64,000 bases of DNA from Octopus vulgaris (lineage: Eukaryota). Location of the stretch: the NCBI GenBank assembly GCA_951406725.2, contig OX597827.1, positions 53,692,001-53,756,000 on the forward strand. Reading direction: 5' to 3'. Below the pieces are notes generated by a model. The model did not search any database. It was not told where the DNA came from and saw only the letters and a list, made by a program, of their open reading frames with translations. This document shows, in pieces, positions 16,361 to 64,000 of the stretch (positions within the stretch are counted from its first letter, which is position 1; each line of letters opens with the position of its first letter). A program made the position numbers and the translations under genes.

Positions 16361-16710
16361 GTTTCTTTATTAGCCACACAGGGCTGAACACAGACGGGAC
16401 AAATTACAAAGTAGAGCTTTTCTTTTTGGAGAGAGAAAAAAAAGTGGGGTAGGTTTTCGATCAAAAGGGATCGTAAAAAGGAAAGAAAAAACGATCAATA
16501 GGGATCGTGTATCACAGAAATGTCATGATGTAAAGTGTAAAGGGGGAAACAGATAAGGTTTATCCATGGAAAGAAAAGCCTACGGAAAAGACCACGGTAA
16601 CCTCGGTCAATAATGTCACATGTTAACACATTTATTTGCAAGTAAGTAACTCTGTTTTAAATTTTTCCGGGTTCATAGGATCATAATCAAGGTGGCTTCG
16701 TCATTCATAC
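16361..16710 (-). mobile_element. 5'-truncated LINE 3' end (ORF end and 3'UTR) inserted in a (GATA/GACA)n tract
   Basis: Minus strand: short ORF end MNDEATLIMIL*, T-rich UTR, terminal stem-loop and AATAAAGAAA. The last 42 nt match the SINE B tail at 37/42. Confidence 0.6.
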
Positions 16711-17800: not shown

Positions 17801-17960
17801 GATATTTCTGCAACTCAGTCCTGAATCTGTCTGAAATGTAATGGAAAAGAGGTCAGTTTCAAAACATTGATGTCCAGGTCACAAAAGCAAAGTTTGATTT
17901 CTAGGCCCTTGATAAAATCAGAGAAGTACATAATTTCATTTAAATGGTATTTGGTACATT

Positions 17961-18157
17961 CTGCCGTTACGTTCTGAGTTCGTCTGCCGTTACGTTCTGA
18001 GTTCAAATTCCGCCGAGGTCGACTTTGCCTTTCATCCTTTCGGGGTCGATAAATTAAGTACCAGTTACGCACTGGGGTCGGTGTCATCGACTTAATCCGT
18101 TTGTCTGTCCTTGTTTGTCATCTCTGTGTTTAGCCCCTTGTGGGTAGTAAAGAAATA
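17961..18157 (+). mobile_element. SINE family B (tail type 1), 5'-truncated
   Basis: B-box GAGTTCAAATTCC, body GTCGACTTTGCCTTTCATCCTTTCGGGGTCGATAAA, and 15-bp TSD GGTATTTGGTACATT (17946-17960, 18158-18172). Confidence 0.9.
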
Positions 18158-18264
18158 GGTATTTGGTACATTTGAGAGTACAGGTAAACTTTCAGGCAGC
18201 TGAATTCGATGTCTATTGAATTCGATGTCGCCATTGAAATTACTTTATTTTCTTCACGCCCTGA

Positions 18265-20560: not shown

Positions 20561-21307
20561 ATACATACATACATACATACATACATACAAACAAAAATAC
20601 ATACATACACACGCACACATGTATGTATGTATTATACACACATACGTGCGTGTATGTGTGTGTGTATGTATGTGTGTGCGCGCGTGTATGTGTCATTCCC
20701 ACCGATCTTGTTACAAAATGGAAAGAGAATTAAACAAAACCGGTTGGTGGTATGAAATCGTCACTTGGATTAGCACCACCCGCTCACTCCCGGATACTTT
20801 TAGTGAAAAAACATTCTGTGGCAATCATCTGGACCAAGTTTCCGGTGTCAGAATAACTTGATTTCTTGATGCACTTCCTTCTACTGCAGTGACTCATGAG
20901 TTGTGGTTTCTCCCTCCCTGCTTCAAGATCAGTCTTGGGCATCCTGTAAGGATCAGAAGCAGTCCCCTTTTTTTTCTCTGGTTAAGTAATAAAAAGAACA
21001 AAAACCTCAGTGATTATAAAGAGGTGTACCTCTTTTTTTTATTTTCATTTCATCTGCTTTGCTTTCTTATTAACCACATCACCGACTTTTGCAAGGAAGT
21101 GTGTATAGTCTTATATTTATTTTGTTACTCTTTCCTATGATTGGAAGATAAGTCCACGTAGGCGAATGCGCACGACGAAGCCAAACTACGGCTTTAAAAA
21201 GAGACGAAGCCAAACTACGGCATTTAGTCCGGGTTAGTATGCAGTTTACGAGGAAAAAATGGAAGTAAACTAGCCTAATGCTGTAAAAGTGAATTACAAC
21301 AGAAACC

Positions 21308-21538
21308 TATTTCTTTATTACCCACAAGGGGCTAAACACAGAGGGGACAAACAAGGACAGACATAGGTATTAAGTCGATTACATCGACCCAGTGCGTAAC
21401 TGGTACTTAATTTATCGACCCCGAAAGGATGAAAGGCAAAGTCGACCTCGGCGGAATTTGAACTCAGAACGTAACGACAGACGAAATACGGCTACGCATT
21501 TCGCCCGGCGTGCTAACGTTTCTGCCAGCTCGCCGCCT
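21308..21538 (-). mobile_element. SINE family B (tail type 1), full length
   Basis: 14-bp TSD TTACAACAGAAACC at 21294-21307 and 21539-21552. Confidence 0.92.
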
Positions 21539-21939
21539 TTACAACAGAAACCGGGAGGGATGCCATTGACAGCTTAAAATTTCATAAAGAGAACAAAGAA
21601 CTCCCTCATTGTGCCTCGTCCACAAGCACCTACATGTGTAGTACCTTCTAGTGGTATGTTGAATATTTCAGAAAAAGCACCTGAAGTACACCGTTCGTAT
21701 TATATACCAAACAACGAACAATACTGAGAGGTGTGGTTCATTTCATCGTATATTAAATATATGTACGATTTTCATTGGCTCGTCCGGAGATACGGATATA
21801 GTGCCTGTAGAGCGCTATATTAAATATATGTACACTTTATGCATTGGTTATGTCACATTCTTTACATGAAATTACGGGGTGTCACTGTCGTCACTTCCGG
21901 TTTCTATCAATTTATTTTTCAATATTTTTAGGACCGCTA

Positions 21940-22115: not shown

Positions 22116-22215
22116 GACAATTTACTTCCATTTTTTTCTTACAACTGTAAACTCTTAATCCTAGTCCGTGCTTGATCATTTTTGCCAATTCCTACCCAGA
22201 TCACTGCTAAATATT

Positions 22216-22797
22216 CTTTTCTGCACTAGGCATAAGGCCCGAAATTTTGGGGGAGGAGGCCAGTCGATTAGATCGCACCCAGTATGCAACTGGTACTTAA
22301 TTTATCGACCCCGAAAGGATGAACGGCAAAGTCGACCTCGGCTGAATTTGAACTCAGAACGTAACGGTAGACGAAATACCTATTTCTTTATTACCCACAA
22401 GGGGCTAAACACAGAGGGGACAAACAAGGACAGACACACGGATTAAGTCGATTACATCGACCCCAGTGTGTAACTGGTACTTAATTTATCGACCCCGAAA
22501 GGGAAAAAGGCAAAGTCGACCTCGGCGGAATTTGAACTCAGAACGTAGCGGCAGACGAAATACCTATTTCTTTACTACCCACAAGGGGCTAAACACAGAG
22601 GGGACAAACAAGGGCAGACACGCGGATTAAGTCGATTACATCGACTCCAGTGTGTAACTGGTACTTAATTTATCGACCCCGAAAGGATGAAAGGCAAAGT
22701 CGACCTCTGCGGAATTTGAACTCAGAACGTAACGGCAGACGAAGTACGGCTACGCATTTCGCCCGGCGTGCTAACGTTTCTGCCAGCTCGCCGCCTT
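22216..22797 (-). mobile_element. Head-to-tail SINE B trimer within one TSD pair
   Basis: 184-bp unit with junctions at 22380/22381 and 22564/22565; TSD AGATC(A/G)CTGCTAAATATT at 22198-22215 and 22798-22815. Confidence 0.9.
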
Positions 22798-24425: not shown

Positions 24426-24656
24426 TATTTCTTTATTGCCCACAAGGGGATAAACATAGAGAGGACAAACAAGAACAGACAAACGGATTAAGTCGATTAC
24501 ATCCACCCCAGTGCGTAACTGGTACTTTATTTATCGACCCCGAAAGGATGAAAGGCAAAGTCGACCTCGGCGGAATTTGAACTCAGAACGTAACGGCAGA
24601 CGAAACACCGCTAAGCATCTCGCCTAGCGTGCTAACGTTTCTGCCAGCTCGCCGCC
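24426..24656 (-). mobile_element. SINE family B (tail type 1), full length
   Basis: Complete head, body and tail; imperfect TSD GTCTGTATAT(C/T)AATATA. Confidence 0.9.
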
Positions 24657-57710: not shown

Positions 57711-58969
57711 CACACGTTACACTCTTATCTTTATTTGTACAATTGATCCTCCCGGGAGATTCACAAGTTGGTAGAGAGATATGTTACAATTAACAGCCAA
57801 ATCTTCCTCAGACCGTCGAATACGTTTGTTGCAAGTAGCCATTTTGAAATAAGGCGCCAATTGGTGGTAGCTGGCAATATGACTTAATGTCGTATTGCCG
57901 AAGAATTATTATTATCGTTTTTTCCATTGGTTAATATAACTGCTCATATAAGGATTCTAAAAAGTTACATAAAGAATATATGTAATGGATTTCGATTCTT
58001 TTAAGTCAAGTTGAGCAGTTATAAAAACCCTGGATTTGGGGGGAAAACTTTAGTGTTTGCTGGGTGTAACTAAACTCCACGACACTCACTTCTTTGAGAC
58101 ATTGGTGATTTTCATGCCATGTCCAAAAGAAATCCGACAAGTCTTATTTGAATTGTTGTGATTCATTATTAGTTAGATTTATGAATTAGCTAGTGAAATA
58201 TATAGTTGTACTTCTACACGACGAAAATTATCTTTTCTTTCACATGTACATAATATAAAATGTTATATTTATATAATAAAACTAATTAAGAAAATGTTTT
58301 CTCTTCACGTTTTTCAACTGTGTATAAATAAATATGCATTTCTGTAATCATTAATAGCGGTTAAATGAACACGAAGATAATATTATGCATACATGACGCT
58401 AATATTCTTAGCGTTACATAAGTAGATTTCTCTATGGCGTTATATACTGTAGTTCGGATTTGCGTATAATGATAACATTTAAGTTATAAATGACGTTTTA
58501 ATCATTATATACACCCTTACTTAAAAAGCCAAATAAAATAATCTATTTCCCAATAGGAAACACAATAAATAGCATTACATTACTAGAGAATTTACTATAA
58601 TAATTACAAAACTAGAGAATTTACTATAATAATATAATAATATAACCTAAGAGAAAGCTCATGGTAGCCTAAAACCGCCTATACTTTCATTTTCATATGT
58701 GGTTACAGGAATCCCTCGCTTTACGAAAATAATAGTTCCTGAAAATCTGGTGGTAATGAAAAATTCCGTGATGCGAAATTGATATTACTCTTGATTTTCA
58801 TGTTATAAAGTGAGATTGCATTCCTACGGACTTTTTCAAAAAATATATATATAAACAAGAAAAAAAAAAAGGAAGCACAAGGAAACTACAGAGAACAAGC
58901 AACGCGATCAATTTATGTATGAAAATAACCTTTCCTAAACTTACGCAGTGTAATATAGATATATAAAAA

Positions 58970-59246
58970 GGCAGCGAGCTGGCAGAAACGTTAGCACGTC
59001 GGGCGAAATGCTTAGCGGTATTTCGTTTGCCGTTACGTTCTGAGTTCAAATTCCGCCGAGGTCGACTTTGTCTTTCATCCTTTCGGGGTCGATAAATTAC
59101 GTGCCAGTTACGCACTGGGGTCGATGTAATCGACATAGTCCCTTTGTATGTCCTTGTTTGTCCCCTCTATGTTTAGCCCCTTGTGGGCAATAAAGAAATA
59201 AGAAACGTTAACACGCCGGACGAAATGCTTTGAGGTATTTCGTCTG
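58970..59246 (+). mobile_element. SINE family B followed by a second partial B head
   Basis: Full copy to 59200, then AGAAACGTTAACACGCCGG...GGTATTTCGTCTG (59201-59246). Confidence 0.9.
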
Positions 59247-59434
59247 TGTGAGTTTGGATTTATTGGTAATTATTATTGGAGTGCGTCTGTATAGTAAGTG
59301 CAAGTTTTTATTGACTGTTTTTGTGACATTTCCAGTTATAATTATTGTTCTTGTTATAATTATTTGTGTGATAGTCTTCGTTCGAAAACTATCGTGTGTT
59401 TTCCCCTGTGGGGGAAACATTAATTGCTGGCAAG

Positions 59435-60809
59435 ATGTCGAAAAGTGTAAATTCGTCTGGCGAAGAGTCGTTAACCGACAGGAAGGCAACAAAGATAGAA
59501 AGTTTAATATTTGGCGATATTTCGGATTCTTCTGAAAGGGAATTTCACCAACCATCAATGTGTATTGTTGTAAAGAAGAATATTGACTTGAAAAGCCTTC
59601 AAACAGAAGAAAATAACCAAAAAAGAAGTTTTGCGTCGGCGGCTGGAGGTGGAACCTGCCAGCTGTCGACAGACAAAAATGACCTGATAAAGTACGAAGA
59701 TATGATAACAATTGAAGACGGTGTTGTGAAGGTTCAACCCCCGGAAGAACTATTAATGTTAGAAAAAATAAAAACAATTATTTTAAAATTTTACAGTCTA
59801 AAAGGAAAAAAAATTGTGCGAAGAGAAAGTTGAGAAATGCTTGAAACCCATCTGGCAGGATACCACATACCTAATCAGAGGGAAGAAGTTTGGTACTATC
59901 AAAGTACGACTAAAAGATATAGAAACTGCACAAATGCACTCAGTTAAATCTTTAGAAACGGAGGACGTTGTTTTAATTCCAGTATATATGGGAATGAGGA
60001 CGTCAAAGATACGTATACGAAAGGTTCCACCTCAAGTCGACCCTATGTGATTGATAATATAGGAAGATAATATAACAAAAAATATAAAAGAAAATATAAC
60101 ACAAAAAGTATAAAACGGAAGATAATATAACACTCATTCAGGCTACTGTCACAGAAAAGGCTTATTGGGCCGGTAAAACGGTTCACCTCCTAATACAAGC
60201 AGAACAGTCAATTTTGGAACAGTTACTGGAGAAAATAGAAATTGGGGAGGAATTCCTTAACGTATTCGTCGAGGGGCGTAAGCTCCGATGTTTCCAATGT
60301 GGCCAGCTGGGCTATATAAAAAAAACACTGTAGAGACGACGAGGAAGAATCCGATGGGGAGGAGGAGGAGGAGGAGGAGATAGGGAGAGAAACAGAAGAA
60401 AAGAAAGCAACTAACAACAAGAGAAAAATGGAAAGCTCAAATCAACCAAAACAGGTCGAACTAAGACCAAAAAAGGAATACTGCGAAAAGAGACAAACCA
60501 AAAATAGTAAGGAAGGAAGCAGAAGACAGAGGGATAGTCGCGTTATACAGCAAAAATGAAGATTTAATGAGAGAAATAAAAGCGAAAAGATCAGCCGCTA
60601 GGATTGCAGAACTTTCTGATAAATATAAGCACTATGAGTTCTACGAAATGGATGAAAAGACTCATAATGTATTACTTAACACGTATACTCGTAGAAAGTC
60701 GGTGTCGATGATGAGATTGGATTTAATCAATCCATTTTTCAAGACTTGCCACCTCCGAACCCTTCAAGAAAAGGTGGAGAGTCCCTTTCCGCAGGACACC
60801 CCGGATTAA
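59435..60809 (+). pseudogene. LINE ORF1 (nucleic-acid-binding, zinc knuckle), frameshifted
   Basis: ATG at 59435; RGKKFGTIKVRL motif; knuckle remnant CFQCGQLGYIKK.C near 60288-60332; acidic tract. Confidence 0.75.
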
Positions 60810-60811
60810 AT

Positions 60812-63800
60812 ATGCGTAAATGTTCATGGCCTGATGTCTAGCTGGAAGCAAGGGCGCTTCCTAAATGACATCAGGTCAAGAACATTGGTTGTAATTGTTG
60901 CAACGGAAACTCAGGTGAAGGAGCCAAGAGATCTGCTCCCCTTCCTGAACGGCTATGAGAAATACGTTTCTCTGAGTCGGGCGGGAGGTGTTGGTGGGGT
61001 TTTGGTTCTACTAAAAAGAAACCGGGTAGCCGAGAAAAAGTTGTTGGTTTTTTTCTGATCCAGAAGGCAGGTTGGTCGTTCTCGACCTGACATTCAATTG
61101 TGGCAAGATAATCAGGCTGGTTGCAATGTATGCACCCAATGTTATGGGCTCGGAAAGTGAATATTTTCGTGACCTGTGCAAGTTCCTGGCCACGTCGCAT
61201 TCGCTAGTATTGATAGGAGACTTTAATACAATCGATGACGCACACACAGATTGAGTTGGCTCGAACAGGAATAGAAAATGTAACCCTGGCTTACGGGATC
61301 TGCTAAGTCACTTTCAGCTGGCAGATCCATATAGGATAGAACACCCGAACACTCCACAGTGGACGTGGTCAAATAGTGACGGGTCTTCCATAACATATCT
61401 AGATAGGGTTTTAATTAGAAAAACAGATATGTCCATAGCCAAGTGTTCACAGTTTTATCTAGTCAGCTACAGTTGTCACAAGATGGTTACCTGTAAGCTG
61501 ACAGTAGATAAGTTGCAGACAGGGATCTGGCTACTGAAAACTCAATACGTCCCTTTTGGCGATTGAGGAGTACAAAAAGCAGATCGAGATGTTAATACAG
61601 AGGGCATTGACAGGTACCATCATTAATAACAAATGGTGGTACACCCTAAAAAGAGCCATAAAATATGAGTCTATTAGGTTTTGCATAAGTTAGATAAGAA
61701 TAAGAGATGGTCTAGTTAAGGAACTAGAAGAAGCCTGGAGGACTGGCAATGCGGACCAAGTGAAGGTGAAGAGACTGGAGCTGAACCAGCATCTTGAAAC
61801 CCAACACATGGGAAGTATTGCCAGAGCTAAGTTACGTGCGATGGGAAGTGAAGGAATTAAGGCTGCTGGATGGCCCCGAGTGGTGGAAGCTCGACAAGGA
61901 AATAGGTCTACTATTCGGTCTTTGACGAATCAAAATGGTGTCTTGGTAAACGAACCCGAGAAAATGTGTGAGGTACTTCGCCCAGCTGTTCGGGGGTGAT
62001 GGCGGTCCTGATGGTCCTCGAGGACTTTCTTGCCGAGCTGCGTGCCTCTCGGGGTCGGATACTGAGTCTTGCGAAGGGCCGATCACGCCTGTGGAGGTAA
62101 TGGAGGCTATGGCCGACTGTAAAGCGGGTAAGTCGCCGGGAATTGATGGTCTTCCGTACGAGCTGTATAAATGTATGCCAGACTTGTTCGGGCCCTACTG
62201 GATGATGTGCACGCGAACTGACAACAGAATGGGTTTATCCCCAGACCTGTGCGCCGAGGAGTAGTGACGTTGGTCAGAAAGGACCCGGACAAGAGGGACG
62301 TTTTAGATAACATCAGGCCCATCACTCTGTTAAACGCAGAAGTGAAGATTTAGGCCATGATCTTAGCAAAAAGGTTGGCGCGTGTCGCGAATTGTATAGT
62401 CGAGAAGGCACAGACATGTGCCATTGCAGACAGAACCATCCAGGATAATCTCTACCTTATTCACTATACCATAGAGAGGGTTGGTGATAAATCTGGCAAA
62501 GGTAGGGCATTGGTACATTTGGCCCAGTCTAAAGCTTTTGATAGGGTTGACCATCGATACCTGACGACTGTGCTTGCGCGGTTCGGCCTAGGTCTTGGCT
62601 TCCTCAGGTGGTTTATCACTTTGTATCACAAGATTGACTCGATAGTTCGGGTGAACGGTTTCCTTTCGAAGCCGTTCTGCATCAGGCGCTCGGTTCGTCA
62701 AGGATGTCCGCTCTCACCACTTTTGCATGTGGTGACTCTCGAAACCCTACTGCGAAGGTTGAGTGGCATCCCGAGAGAACTAGGTTTAGAGGAGTTTGTT
62801 ACAGCTTATGCGGACGATATCACTATCAGCGTAACCACACTAGCAAACCCACGTGAAGTGGGTAAAGCTATTGAGGTTTATGAGACGGTGGCAGGAGCAA
62901 AGATTAACCGGGAAAAGTCAGTCGGCTTGCAACTCGGCACCTGGGTTGGCAAGTTGATGCCTTCAGACAGTGTTGTTGGGCGCTGGACAGAGGGACCGGT
63001 TAACTTGCTGGGAGTCTGGTTTGGACCAGGCCTCCAGATAGAGAAGAAATGGACGGAGGTTTCGAACAGGGTGGCTGCAGTTGTCAAGACCTGGTATTGG
63101 CGGTGGCTATCCTTAAAAGGGAAGGAGGAGGTGGCCAATATGTTTATCGCATCGGTCATTACTTACCGCCTGACAGTCGTGCCCTTTCCGGATTCATGGT
63201 TGATCAAGTTGGAGAGACAGCTCTTTCGCTTTTTGTGGGAGGGCAGGTTGCGACTTGTGAAACGCTCCGTCTGTTGTCAAAAGCCGTTAAAGGGAGGTTT
63301 AGGGATACATTGGTTAATGATGCGCAGGCATGCGTTGAGGTTGAGATATCTCTGGATTCTCCTGGCTGGTGAACGGATGTGGTCTTCACTGGCCAAACAA
63401 AAGTTCCACGAGTTCAAAAATGTTTGCAAACAGGAAGCCTGGTGTTTTCGTAGACCGAGGTCGAGTGAATGACATAAAGAGTACCGTAAGGCCCTCCTGC
63501 TACTCCGGCGCTCGGGCAACGCCAGCGGTGGGGGCTCTACACGAATTTTAGATATTGGGTTGGTAGAGTCTGGATGTGACGATGGCCTGGAGGCGACTCT
63601 AGGTCTCGGGTTTATTCAACTGGATAGCCTGTTCCATTGTACATTCGGGTTGAGAACGTTGGACAACTTCCAAAAGTCTTTGACCTGGCGATGTTACAGA
63701 GGTGCCTTGCCCGTTTGGGATAAGACATGGTAAACGTCAGTCTCCGACCTGTCCAAGATGCGGGGGAGACAGGGAAACCGTCCCTCACGCTATTGTCCAG

Positions 63801-64000
63801 TGTCCGGAGATATCTGAAATGTGGGTTTAAGCTGAACACCTGTTGTCCGGCGAAGGAAGAGTACGGCTGTTGACTGAGTCAATTATAAAAATTGACCCAC
63901 CGGAAGTTTTAACAAGCGAAGGTAAGGATTATTTTCTCACGGTTGTAGCAATAGGGAAAGAGGCACTATGGAAGACTAGGATAAAAGGGATTGAGACAGA
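60812..64000 (+). pseudogene. LINE ORF2 (AP endonuclease and reverse transcriptase) with stops and frameshifts
   Basis: NVHGL..ATET, YAPN, LIGDFN, WTW..YLDRV, KSPGIDGLPYE, RPITLLN, KAFDRVDH, VRQGCPLSPLL, AYADD, GGLG and CPRCGGDRETVPHAIVQC. Confidence 0.95.

Follow-up and report, generated by a model that had tools for sequence, protein, structure and literature searches.

The stretch of DNA considered here, referred to as the window, comprises 64,000 nucleotides (nt) of the Octopus vulgaris genome (assembly GCA_951406725.2, contig OX597827.1, positions 53,692,001 to 53,756,000; G000:C14:53692001-53756000 in our coordinates), and searches covered the 2.8-Gb genome in 227 contigs. Near its right end lies a long interspersed element (LINE) that interrupts the head of a short interspersed element (SINE) of transfer RNA (tRNA) type. 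The LINE belongs to a Tx1-related family that, together with a SINE subfamily sharing its tail, inserts repeatedly at a 13-bp site in SINE heads, with target-site duplications (TSDs) derived from the host. SINE B, tail C, tail D, LINE-G (the family of the window copy) and LINE-C are working labels of this analysis. The locus contains the following features, including remnants of two open reading frames (ORFs):

58952-58969, plus strand: outer TSD bounding the entire host-SINE complex, 5' copy (the 3' copy, with 2 mismatches, is at L031:1555-1572)
58970-59200, plus strand: full SINE B with a GGGCA-type tail, joined to a second host-head site (AGAA)
59201-59233, plus strand: host SINE head fragment, about head positions 15-47, forming the 5' arm of the head hairpin
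59234-59246, plus strand: 5' copy of the 13-bp TSD GGTATTTCGTCTG (3' copy at L031:1400-1412, G000:C14:53756400-53756412)
59247-64000 and on to G000:C14:53756399, plus strand: LINE-G, Tx1-related, about 5.15 kb
59435-60809, plus strand: LINE-G ORF1 remnant, 66% nucleotide identity to the intact LINE-C ORF1 (CCHC zinc knuckle)
60810-64000, plus strand: LINE-G ORF2 remnant with apurinic (APE)-type endonuclease, reverse transcriptase (RT; RVT_1 in 62354-63469) and zf-RVT

The window LINE-G copy is decayed, with stops and frameshifts, and starts directly after the motif, as had been noticed. The GGTATTTCGTCTG site forms the 3' arm of the head hairpin and, in an intact head, falls between the A and B boxes. 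Read past the window end, the sequence runs ...AATAAAGAAATT/GGTATTTCGTCTG (the slash marks the junction) and continues into the remainder of the SINE; the LINE 3' end reads ...GTGGGCAATAAAGAAATT, without poly(A). The TSD and SINE remainder predicted beyond position 64000 are thus present, but the LINE ends in AAAGAAATT rather than ATA and the host is not SINE B. Its remainder carries tail C (...GGGCCTTGTGCTTAGAGTAGAAAAGAATAT), and because this tail differs, the host is a sister SINE whose head and body match those of SINE B. The claim that the LINE sits inside a SINE B head between the A and B boxes was accordingly right about the head site and wrong about the host, and the A box is cut at this locus because the GGGCA-type SINE B occupies the second head site. 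The possibility that GGTATTTCGTCTG is the LINE's own 5' end was rejected: the motif flanks the LINE on both sides, carries private host mutations and appears as a C variant in C hosts. The second head site is itself a recurrent junction, in which a SINE tail meets the head at GC/AGAAACGTTAGC, near head position 15; it occurs at window positions 59200-59201 and at L002, L030, L088, L103 and L135, chiefly with SINE B of the GGGCA type, although tail-C SINEs use it too. These SINEs often have a further abundant short repeat (...CACTTGCCCAAGGTGCCACGCAGTGGGACTGAACC...) as their neighbour (L031:3780-3990 and the L050 3' flank).

Genome-wide, LINE-G behaves as the window copy does. The 3'-end query stopped at the first G, so its matches were not selected by flank; it returned 40 matches, of which 30 were taken as loci, the window copy included. 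The 3' flank enters the SINE remainder in 28 of these 30; one flank consists of 17 nt of remainder and one is an N gap. The first flanking bases are GGTA in 24 loci, AGTA in 2, GGGA, GGTT, GATA and GGCA in 1 each and CGTA in none, and the host tails are C-like in 18, B in 8, D in 2 and unknown in 2. At the 5' end the junction is present in 28 of 30 loci, always behind the site (20 after a SINE tail, 8 after a head); the 5'-end query contained the site, so these junctions are biased towards it, whereas the 3'-end searches are unbiased. LINE-G copies are 89.8% alike pairwise compared to 83.7% for their host remainders (n = 28), and 5'-truncated LINEs and SINEs occur at the same head site. None of the 20 LINE-G copies examined is intact. 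An exact-pattern search for the LINE-G tail gives 5 matches genome-wide, which is too strict as a copy number.

Some LINE-G copies have features of their own. Several keep both ends within only 1.1-3.6 kb (L006/L056, L007/L035, L016/L051, L002/L057), and such internally deleted copies are possible non-autonomous derivatives. The share of LINE-G 5' ends preceded by a SINE tail is about twice that of tail-preceded G sites in the SINE sample described below (33/94). One LINE-G copy, at L060/L269 (G000:C2:129816550), ends in the SINE-type tail GGGTAGTAAAGAAATT, which hints at LINE-SINE tail exchange or a true partner subfamily.

A peptide search found LINE-C, whose younger copies have an open ORF2 of 1134 amino acids (aa) and share 87% identity with the window LINE over ORF2 and 66% over ORF1. 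LINE-C uses the same head site with one base changed: CGTA follows its 3' end in 29 of 30 cases and the SINE remainder in 28 of 30. The CGTA set includes one copy after a tail deletion, one off-target copy with CGTA only, and two loci that are duplicates (L248/L255); the sole exception reads TATA, likely through CpG decay. All 10 LINE-C 5' junctions, one of them in a 5'-truncated copy, lie in the head variant GCGTAGC/CGTATTTCG. Exact counts give 14,349 G heads and 13,552 C heads in the genome. LINE-C copies are 99.1% alike pairwise, compared to 88.3% for host remainders (n = 26); this comparison and that for LINE-G left out 4 LINE-C and 2 LINE-G loci that have no usable host remainder. Because divergence is far greater among the hosts than among the LINE copies, the LINEs of both families inserted independently, into pre-existing hosts of several SINE families. 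These hosts have their own varied outer TSDs, and private host mutations are present in both TSD copies at L224 and L083. There is a strict split between LINEs, with the G site used by the old LINE-G and by SINE B and the C site by the young LINE-C. Pairwise identity is 0.895 among C-head SINEs and 0.907 among G-head SINEs, compared to 0.991 for LINE-C; C-head SINEs, G-head SINE B and LINE-G are of equal age, tails C and D are older and LINE-C is far younger. A SINE tail precedes the 5' end in 0 of 10 LINE-C and 20 of 28 LINE-G copies. Contigs assembled from four runs with four organism labels match LINE-C at about 99% identity, and none of them bridges the head-LINE junction by 31 letters or displays an RNA end.

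SINE B uses the site on a far larger scale. The target SINE head has over 100,000 copies. Among 52,328 exact GGGTAG-type SINE B tails, 29,352 have AGGTA next (GGTA after the tail) and 13,973 have AGGTATTTCGTC next; together with the 28 of 30 LINE-G 3' ends, these counts uphold the predicted insertion of LINE and SINE at a shared site. Tails were further tallied by Hamming scans of a 1.2-Mb sample (120 stretches of 10 kb at regular coordinates), in which no LINE-G or LINE-C copy occurs. The sample contains 85 tails: 55 GGGTA-type, 20 GGGCA-type, 8 of a sister LINE in (TATC)n and 2 between classes. GGGTA-type tails are nested at the site in 33 cases, followed by a solitary GG start in 12, TATA-like sequence in 5, AGAA-like in 4 and another in 1; the corresponding numbers for GGGCA-type tails are 2 nested, 1 GG, 5 TATA-like, 11 AGAA-like and 1 other. 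The motif is thus still enriched outside arrays, as predicted, with a GG start in 12 of 22 non-nested GGGTA-type tails compared to 1 of 18 GGGCA-type tails. Nested insertions make up 33 of the 45 nested and solitary-GG GGGTA-type junctions (26 of 38 loci), far beyond what a short-motif preference would give, because few short motifs are SINE sites (72 of 6,330 GGTA and 38 of 713 GYGGTA in the sample). Overall, 34 of 154 sampled site-bearing SINE units (22%) follow a tail, which extrapolates to roughly 80,000 nested junctions genome-wide. The site after a SINE tail starts with G in 33 of the 34 sampled junctions; exact genome counts after a tail are 13,973 for G versus 281 for C, obtained with differing patterns of which the C pattern is the broader. 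TSDs were found in 33 of 69 solitary candidates, mostly 14-17 bp long. Where solitary TSDs have GGT it stands in both copies (11 rows, one being a LINE-adjacent copy), so the GGT core existed before insertion. The idea that the SINE carries its own landing pad is sound, but the pad is not particular to SINE B, being common to older SINE families with other tails that account for 20 of 30 LINE-G hosts.

Nested SINEs form head-to-tail arrays of 184-bp units. First units are GGGTA-tailed in 20 of 22 arrays, and last units are mixed, mostly older hosts, with GGGTA tails in only 2 of 26. Among all loci examined, only L083 has a second full head after the site, and there both TSD copies carry an identical private mutation. 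One 10-unit array (L306) consists of near-identical units with common private variants; such homogeneity indicates that it was amplified locally.

The window itself contains 11 matches to GGTATTTCGTCTG with up to 2 mismatches, against 1.34 expected, all within SINE copies. The relevant copies apart from the LINE locus are:

22213-22795, minus strand: SINE trimer with sites at 22552-22564 and 22368-22380; outer TSD TTTAGCAGYGATCT
17946-18172, plus strand: solitary GGGTA-type SINE B, 5'-truncated; TSD GGTATTTGGTACATT on both sides (17946/18158)
21294-21552, minus strand: solitary GGGTA-type SINE B with a C-variant head; TSD GGTTTCTGTTGTAA on both sides (21294/21539)

The trimer consists of a C-variant head, two GGGTA-tail units and a tail-C host remainder. 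The motif directly follows the tail at both of its junctions (22564 and 22380, minus strand), as had been noticed, although the last unit is a sister SINE with tail C and not SINE B. The similar TSD starts reported for the two solitary GGGTA-type copies are also seen, and the GGGCA/GGGGA-type copies at 24426, 28270 and 34868 lack the target, as stated, and have AT-rich TSDs.

Classification of the LINE draws on its proteins. LINE-C ORF2 (P0121, 1134 aa) has Exo_endo_phos, RVT_1 and zf-RVT above cut-offs, and its best solved structure is human L1 ORF2p; the window LINE-G ORF2 has an RVT_1 match and is collinear by tblastn. LINE-C ORF1 has zf-CCHC at 23.1 bits (cut-off 20.8), which was not found in the one window ORF1 fragment tested. 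The nearest named LINE-protein relative is from Argonauta hians (53%). In a quick RT tree of 43 rows, without curated Tx1L, Keno or L1 rows, the cephalopod group joins vertebrate proteins that include one auto-named "transposon TX1 149 kDa" (approximate likelihood-ratio support, SH-aLRT, 97), and another auto-named TX1 protein lies outside. The domains agree with L1/Tx1, and the family is Tx1-related and likely a member of the Tx1 clade. By Kojima's rule a LINE is target-specific if one repeat occurs in >20% of its flanks; here the SINE remainder occurs in 28 of 30 3' flanks of LINE-G and as many of LINE-C.

The SINE is assigned on similar grounds. Its putative A and B boxes were recognised by eye, and its head folds into two hairpins (z -2.87); ARAGORN predicts 0 tRNA genes and Rfam gives no tRNA match. 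On 6 loci Rfam returned microsatellite microRNA noise only, with no tRNA and no small nuclear RNA (snRNA) match. The head contains a 10-11-bp inverted repeat of which the site makes up the 3' arm, and the C variant (T>G plus G>C) turns a U.G pair of the predicted head hairpin into G-C, a compensatory change. SINE and LINE tails are alike in an alignment of 9 tails, and 4 of 6 tail-only predicted folds contain the same small stem-loop, none of them significant (z 0.4 to -1.2). The putative partnership of SINE B and LINE-G is based on tail, target and age. The SINE may be one of the octopus SINEs OK, OR1 or OR2, which look similar.

At least five sister families share one tail design and have distinct targets, which is the usual Tx1 pattern of quick target change. 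A young 1145-aa family with the same tail design lies in (ATT)n in 28 of 30 cases; its copies (L182-L211, e.g., G000:C4:93804498-93834472) are very young, have intact ORF2 and form head-to-tail stacks with a period of about 5.87 kb, and the small contigs C47 and C50 contain long runs of it. A young 1132-aa family (L227-L236) inserts at ACATGGAGGAAAG in another repeat. That repeat resembles the decayed ORF1 start of a related LINE, a LINE-targets-LINE analogue, and the one ACATGGAGGAAAG site has stacked insertions of three or more sister families that differ in their tails. A further family inserts in (TATC)n: a 3' fragment with tail ...GTTCAGCCCTGTGTGGCTAATAAAGAAAC lies at 16362-16660 (minus strand) of the window, and TATC- or TATG-type repeats come next after all 8 such tails in the 1.2-Mb sample. 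A non-exhaustive search encountered no LINE that targets AGAA or TATA.

The site is probably chosen by a loose endonuclease nick combined with pairing of read-through RNA with the nicked target, a reading that comes from sequence comparison. The bottom strand would be nicked just 5' of the motif, opposite a pyrimidine. LINE messenger RNA and SINE RNA would read on past AAAGAAAU(U/A) into the TSD, so that the RNA carries the target; transcripts should include it because LINE-G has AATAAA 6 nt before its end and SINE B lacks a T4 run, the RNA polymerase III terminator. Priming would be best where the RNA matches the target, with the G/C base at the very 3' end of the primer, and target choice would thus be heritable from the flank of the source copy. 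Because an incoming SINE almost never brings a second head, its cDNA may join the host head by homology, in which case there would be no duplication of the head, and the host would acquire a new body along with a new tail. Long homogeneous arrays could then grow through DNA-level amplification.

Several observations favour RNA pairing. Enrichment of the site is far above what a 4-6-mer preference would give, and near-identical SINE tails fall into GGT, AGAA and TATA target classes, with a pyrimidine at -1 common to the classes (9/11 and 6/7). The LINE-G tail reads GGGCA, as in the SINE subtype that does not use the site, so that RNA-guided priming or further partners fit better than simple tail matching. 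Other observations weigh against it. The LINE-C endonuclease differs from that of LINE-G at several positions (GDSN for GDFN, A for D six residues further on, T for S in the hairpin and, compared to 4 of 7 LINE-G copies, H for R after the first Asn), and an enzyme change is therefore possible; GDSN, which adjoins the catalytic Asp at ORF2 residue 143 where L1-type endonucleases have GDFN, is present in 9 of 9 LINE-C copies (L217-L225). Kojima (2015) holds that the endonuclease mainly sets target choice (PMC4494074). Solitary 3' junctions (33 TSDs among 69 candidates) gave no clear case of RNA-templated extra bases, SINE insertions far outnumber LINE-G, for which no intact source was seen, and the G/C split is not absolute for SINEs, given the 281 exact tail-CGTA junctions (C head in 10 of 19 inspected loci).

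The most serious competitor, which we consider clearly less probable, is that the site depends on endonuclease specificity alone. SINE B would then be carried in trans by sister LINEs, each with its own enzyme, to GGTA, CGTA, ATT, TATC and ACATGG targets, plus unseen AGAA and TATA types, and LINE-C would have changed its enzyme to use unoccupied C-variant heads. The fixed residue differences of LINE-C, the sister families with one tail design and distinct targets, and the GGT core in both TSD copies at solitary sites all agree with this, and the inverted repeat at the site could add structural recognition. The reported specificity of the Tx1L endonuclease points the same way. A 4-6-bp preference, however, predicts only 1-5% insertions into SINE heads, not 28 of 30; the single GGTWT-favouring endonuclease of the original prediction gains no support from this figure, nor from a second LINE that uses CGTA. 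In the 1132-aa sister the endonuclease hairpin loop is all but identical (SDGSSRS versus SDGSSRT) and the target unrelated, no LINE for the AGAA or TATA classes came to light in a non-exhaustive search, and the LINE-G tail matches the site-avoiding SINE subtype. It is very improbable that a few founding insertions gave rise to the nested structures mainly through the spread of preassembled composites or through unequal crossing-over. The homogeneous L306 array, the duplicated LINE-C locus (L248/L255) and the missing terminator of SINE B, which would allow multimers to be transcribed, point that way, and SINE tandem arrays elsewhere are ascribed to unequal recombination (PMC10702118, PMC11481361). 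Composites explain array length but not site choice and are largely refuted for LINEs, given hosts that are much more diverged than the LINE copies, have at least four tail types and their own outer TSDs, 5'-truncated LINEs and SINEs at the same site, and the GGT core of solitary copies. As to the origin of the split, it is conceivable, though doubtful, that the C variant spread as an escape from G-site insertion and that LINE-C followed. After-tail sites start with G almost throughout even though roughly one exact head in two is a C head; C-head SINEs match G-head ones in age and LINE-C is far younger, and SINE tails precede most LINE-G 5' ends but none of the LINE-C ones. On the other hand, the two changes compensate each other in the predicted hairpin and may go back to a single master copy or reflect drift, and G heads are still plentiful, so that LINE-G did not run out of sites.

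The octopus LINEs and SINEs have parallels in known systems, which are compared here as far as the consulted parts of the sources describe them. In crocodilians, Tx1-Mar LINEs and SINEU-3 have a common target inside a Mariner (Mariner-N4_AMi) (PMC4494074). There as here, a Tx1-type LINE and its SINE share a target within another repeat, tandem SINEs sandwich the TSD and truncated copies demonstrate that insertions were independent. The crocodilian target is a third element, whereas here it is the head of the mobilised SINE, so that every SINE insertion adds a site; the 184-bp units are fused through head homology, and a one-base target switch is visible between sister LINEs. With no DNA-transposon target and no snRNA match, the octopus system works alike without being a member of that type. 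Tx1L targets Tx1D in Xenopus, Keno U2 snRNA, and Kibi and Koshi microsatellites (PMC4494074). These share two ORFs, an APE endonuclease, a fixed TSD and a multicopy target with the octopus LINEs, and the (ATT)n and (TATC)n families likewise use microsatellites; the targets of the known elements are a gene, microsatellites or a DNA transposon, unlike a tRNA-type SINE head between the A and B boxes. Read-through or target-like RNA of R2Ol (PMC6530143) and of SART1Bm and R1Bm (PMC7265360) anneals to the nicked target. These are also site-specific non-long-terminal-repeat elements, but of other clades and with ribosomal DNA or telomere targets, and annealing demonstrated by experiment there is proposed from sequence here. 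Squamate and bivalve SINE tandem arrays and SINE-derived satellites, attributed to unequal recombination (PMC10702118, PMC11481361), are likewise head-to-tail multimers, some locally amplified; the parts seen describe no fixed internal target shared with a LINE, unlike the 22% of sampled units nested at one base here. MetaSINEs have a tRNA-type head, a common central domain and variable tails of unknown origin (PMC4824008), much as the head and body here carry variable tails, and the portion consulted names neither a partner LINE nor self-targeting. An octopus repeat annotation (PMC13282606) lists L1-Tx1 families, and the word "target" does not turn up in its text or supplement. The literature search, which did not extend to Repbase Reports, Dfam or most subscription papers, found neither a LINE/SINE pair targeting the SINE's own head nor a SINE-targeting Tx1 element; an earlier description of this system somewhere is rather unlikely.

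Known targets of site-specific LINEs are host genes, microsatellites and third-party transposons. In the present case it is the LINE's own passenger that makes the target, and the supply of safe landing sites therefore grows with SINE copy number. For repeat annotation, arrays and chimeras may inflate SINE family counts in these genomes. Endonuclease recognition and RNA-DNA priming are confounded in L1. The G/C pair and the intact natural LINE-C copies separate them, and likely offer a natural test of whether the enzyme or the element RNA picks the site. Gene insertion tools are another reason for interest, since this 5-kb element inserts into an abundant repeat and the end of its RNA possibly sets the target. 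Tentatively, and against our own expectation, the whole may be a self-templating loop. In it the SINE would be the landing pad and read-through RNA the address, so that the flank of the source copy passes the target on while the protein stays unchanged; a SINE variant would have escaped through a single-base change, with a LINE lineage in pursuit, and insertion of one SINE into another with fusion of the heads would exchange bodies and tails among SINE families. If true, this would be a direct route to modular SINE superfamily evolution, at tens of thousands of loci.
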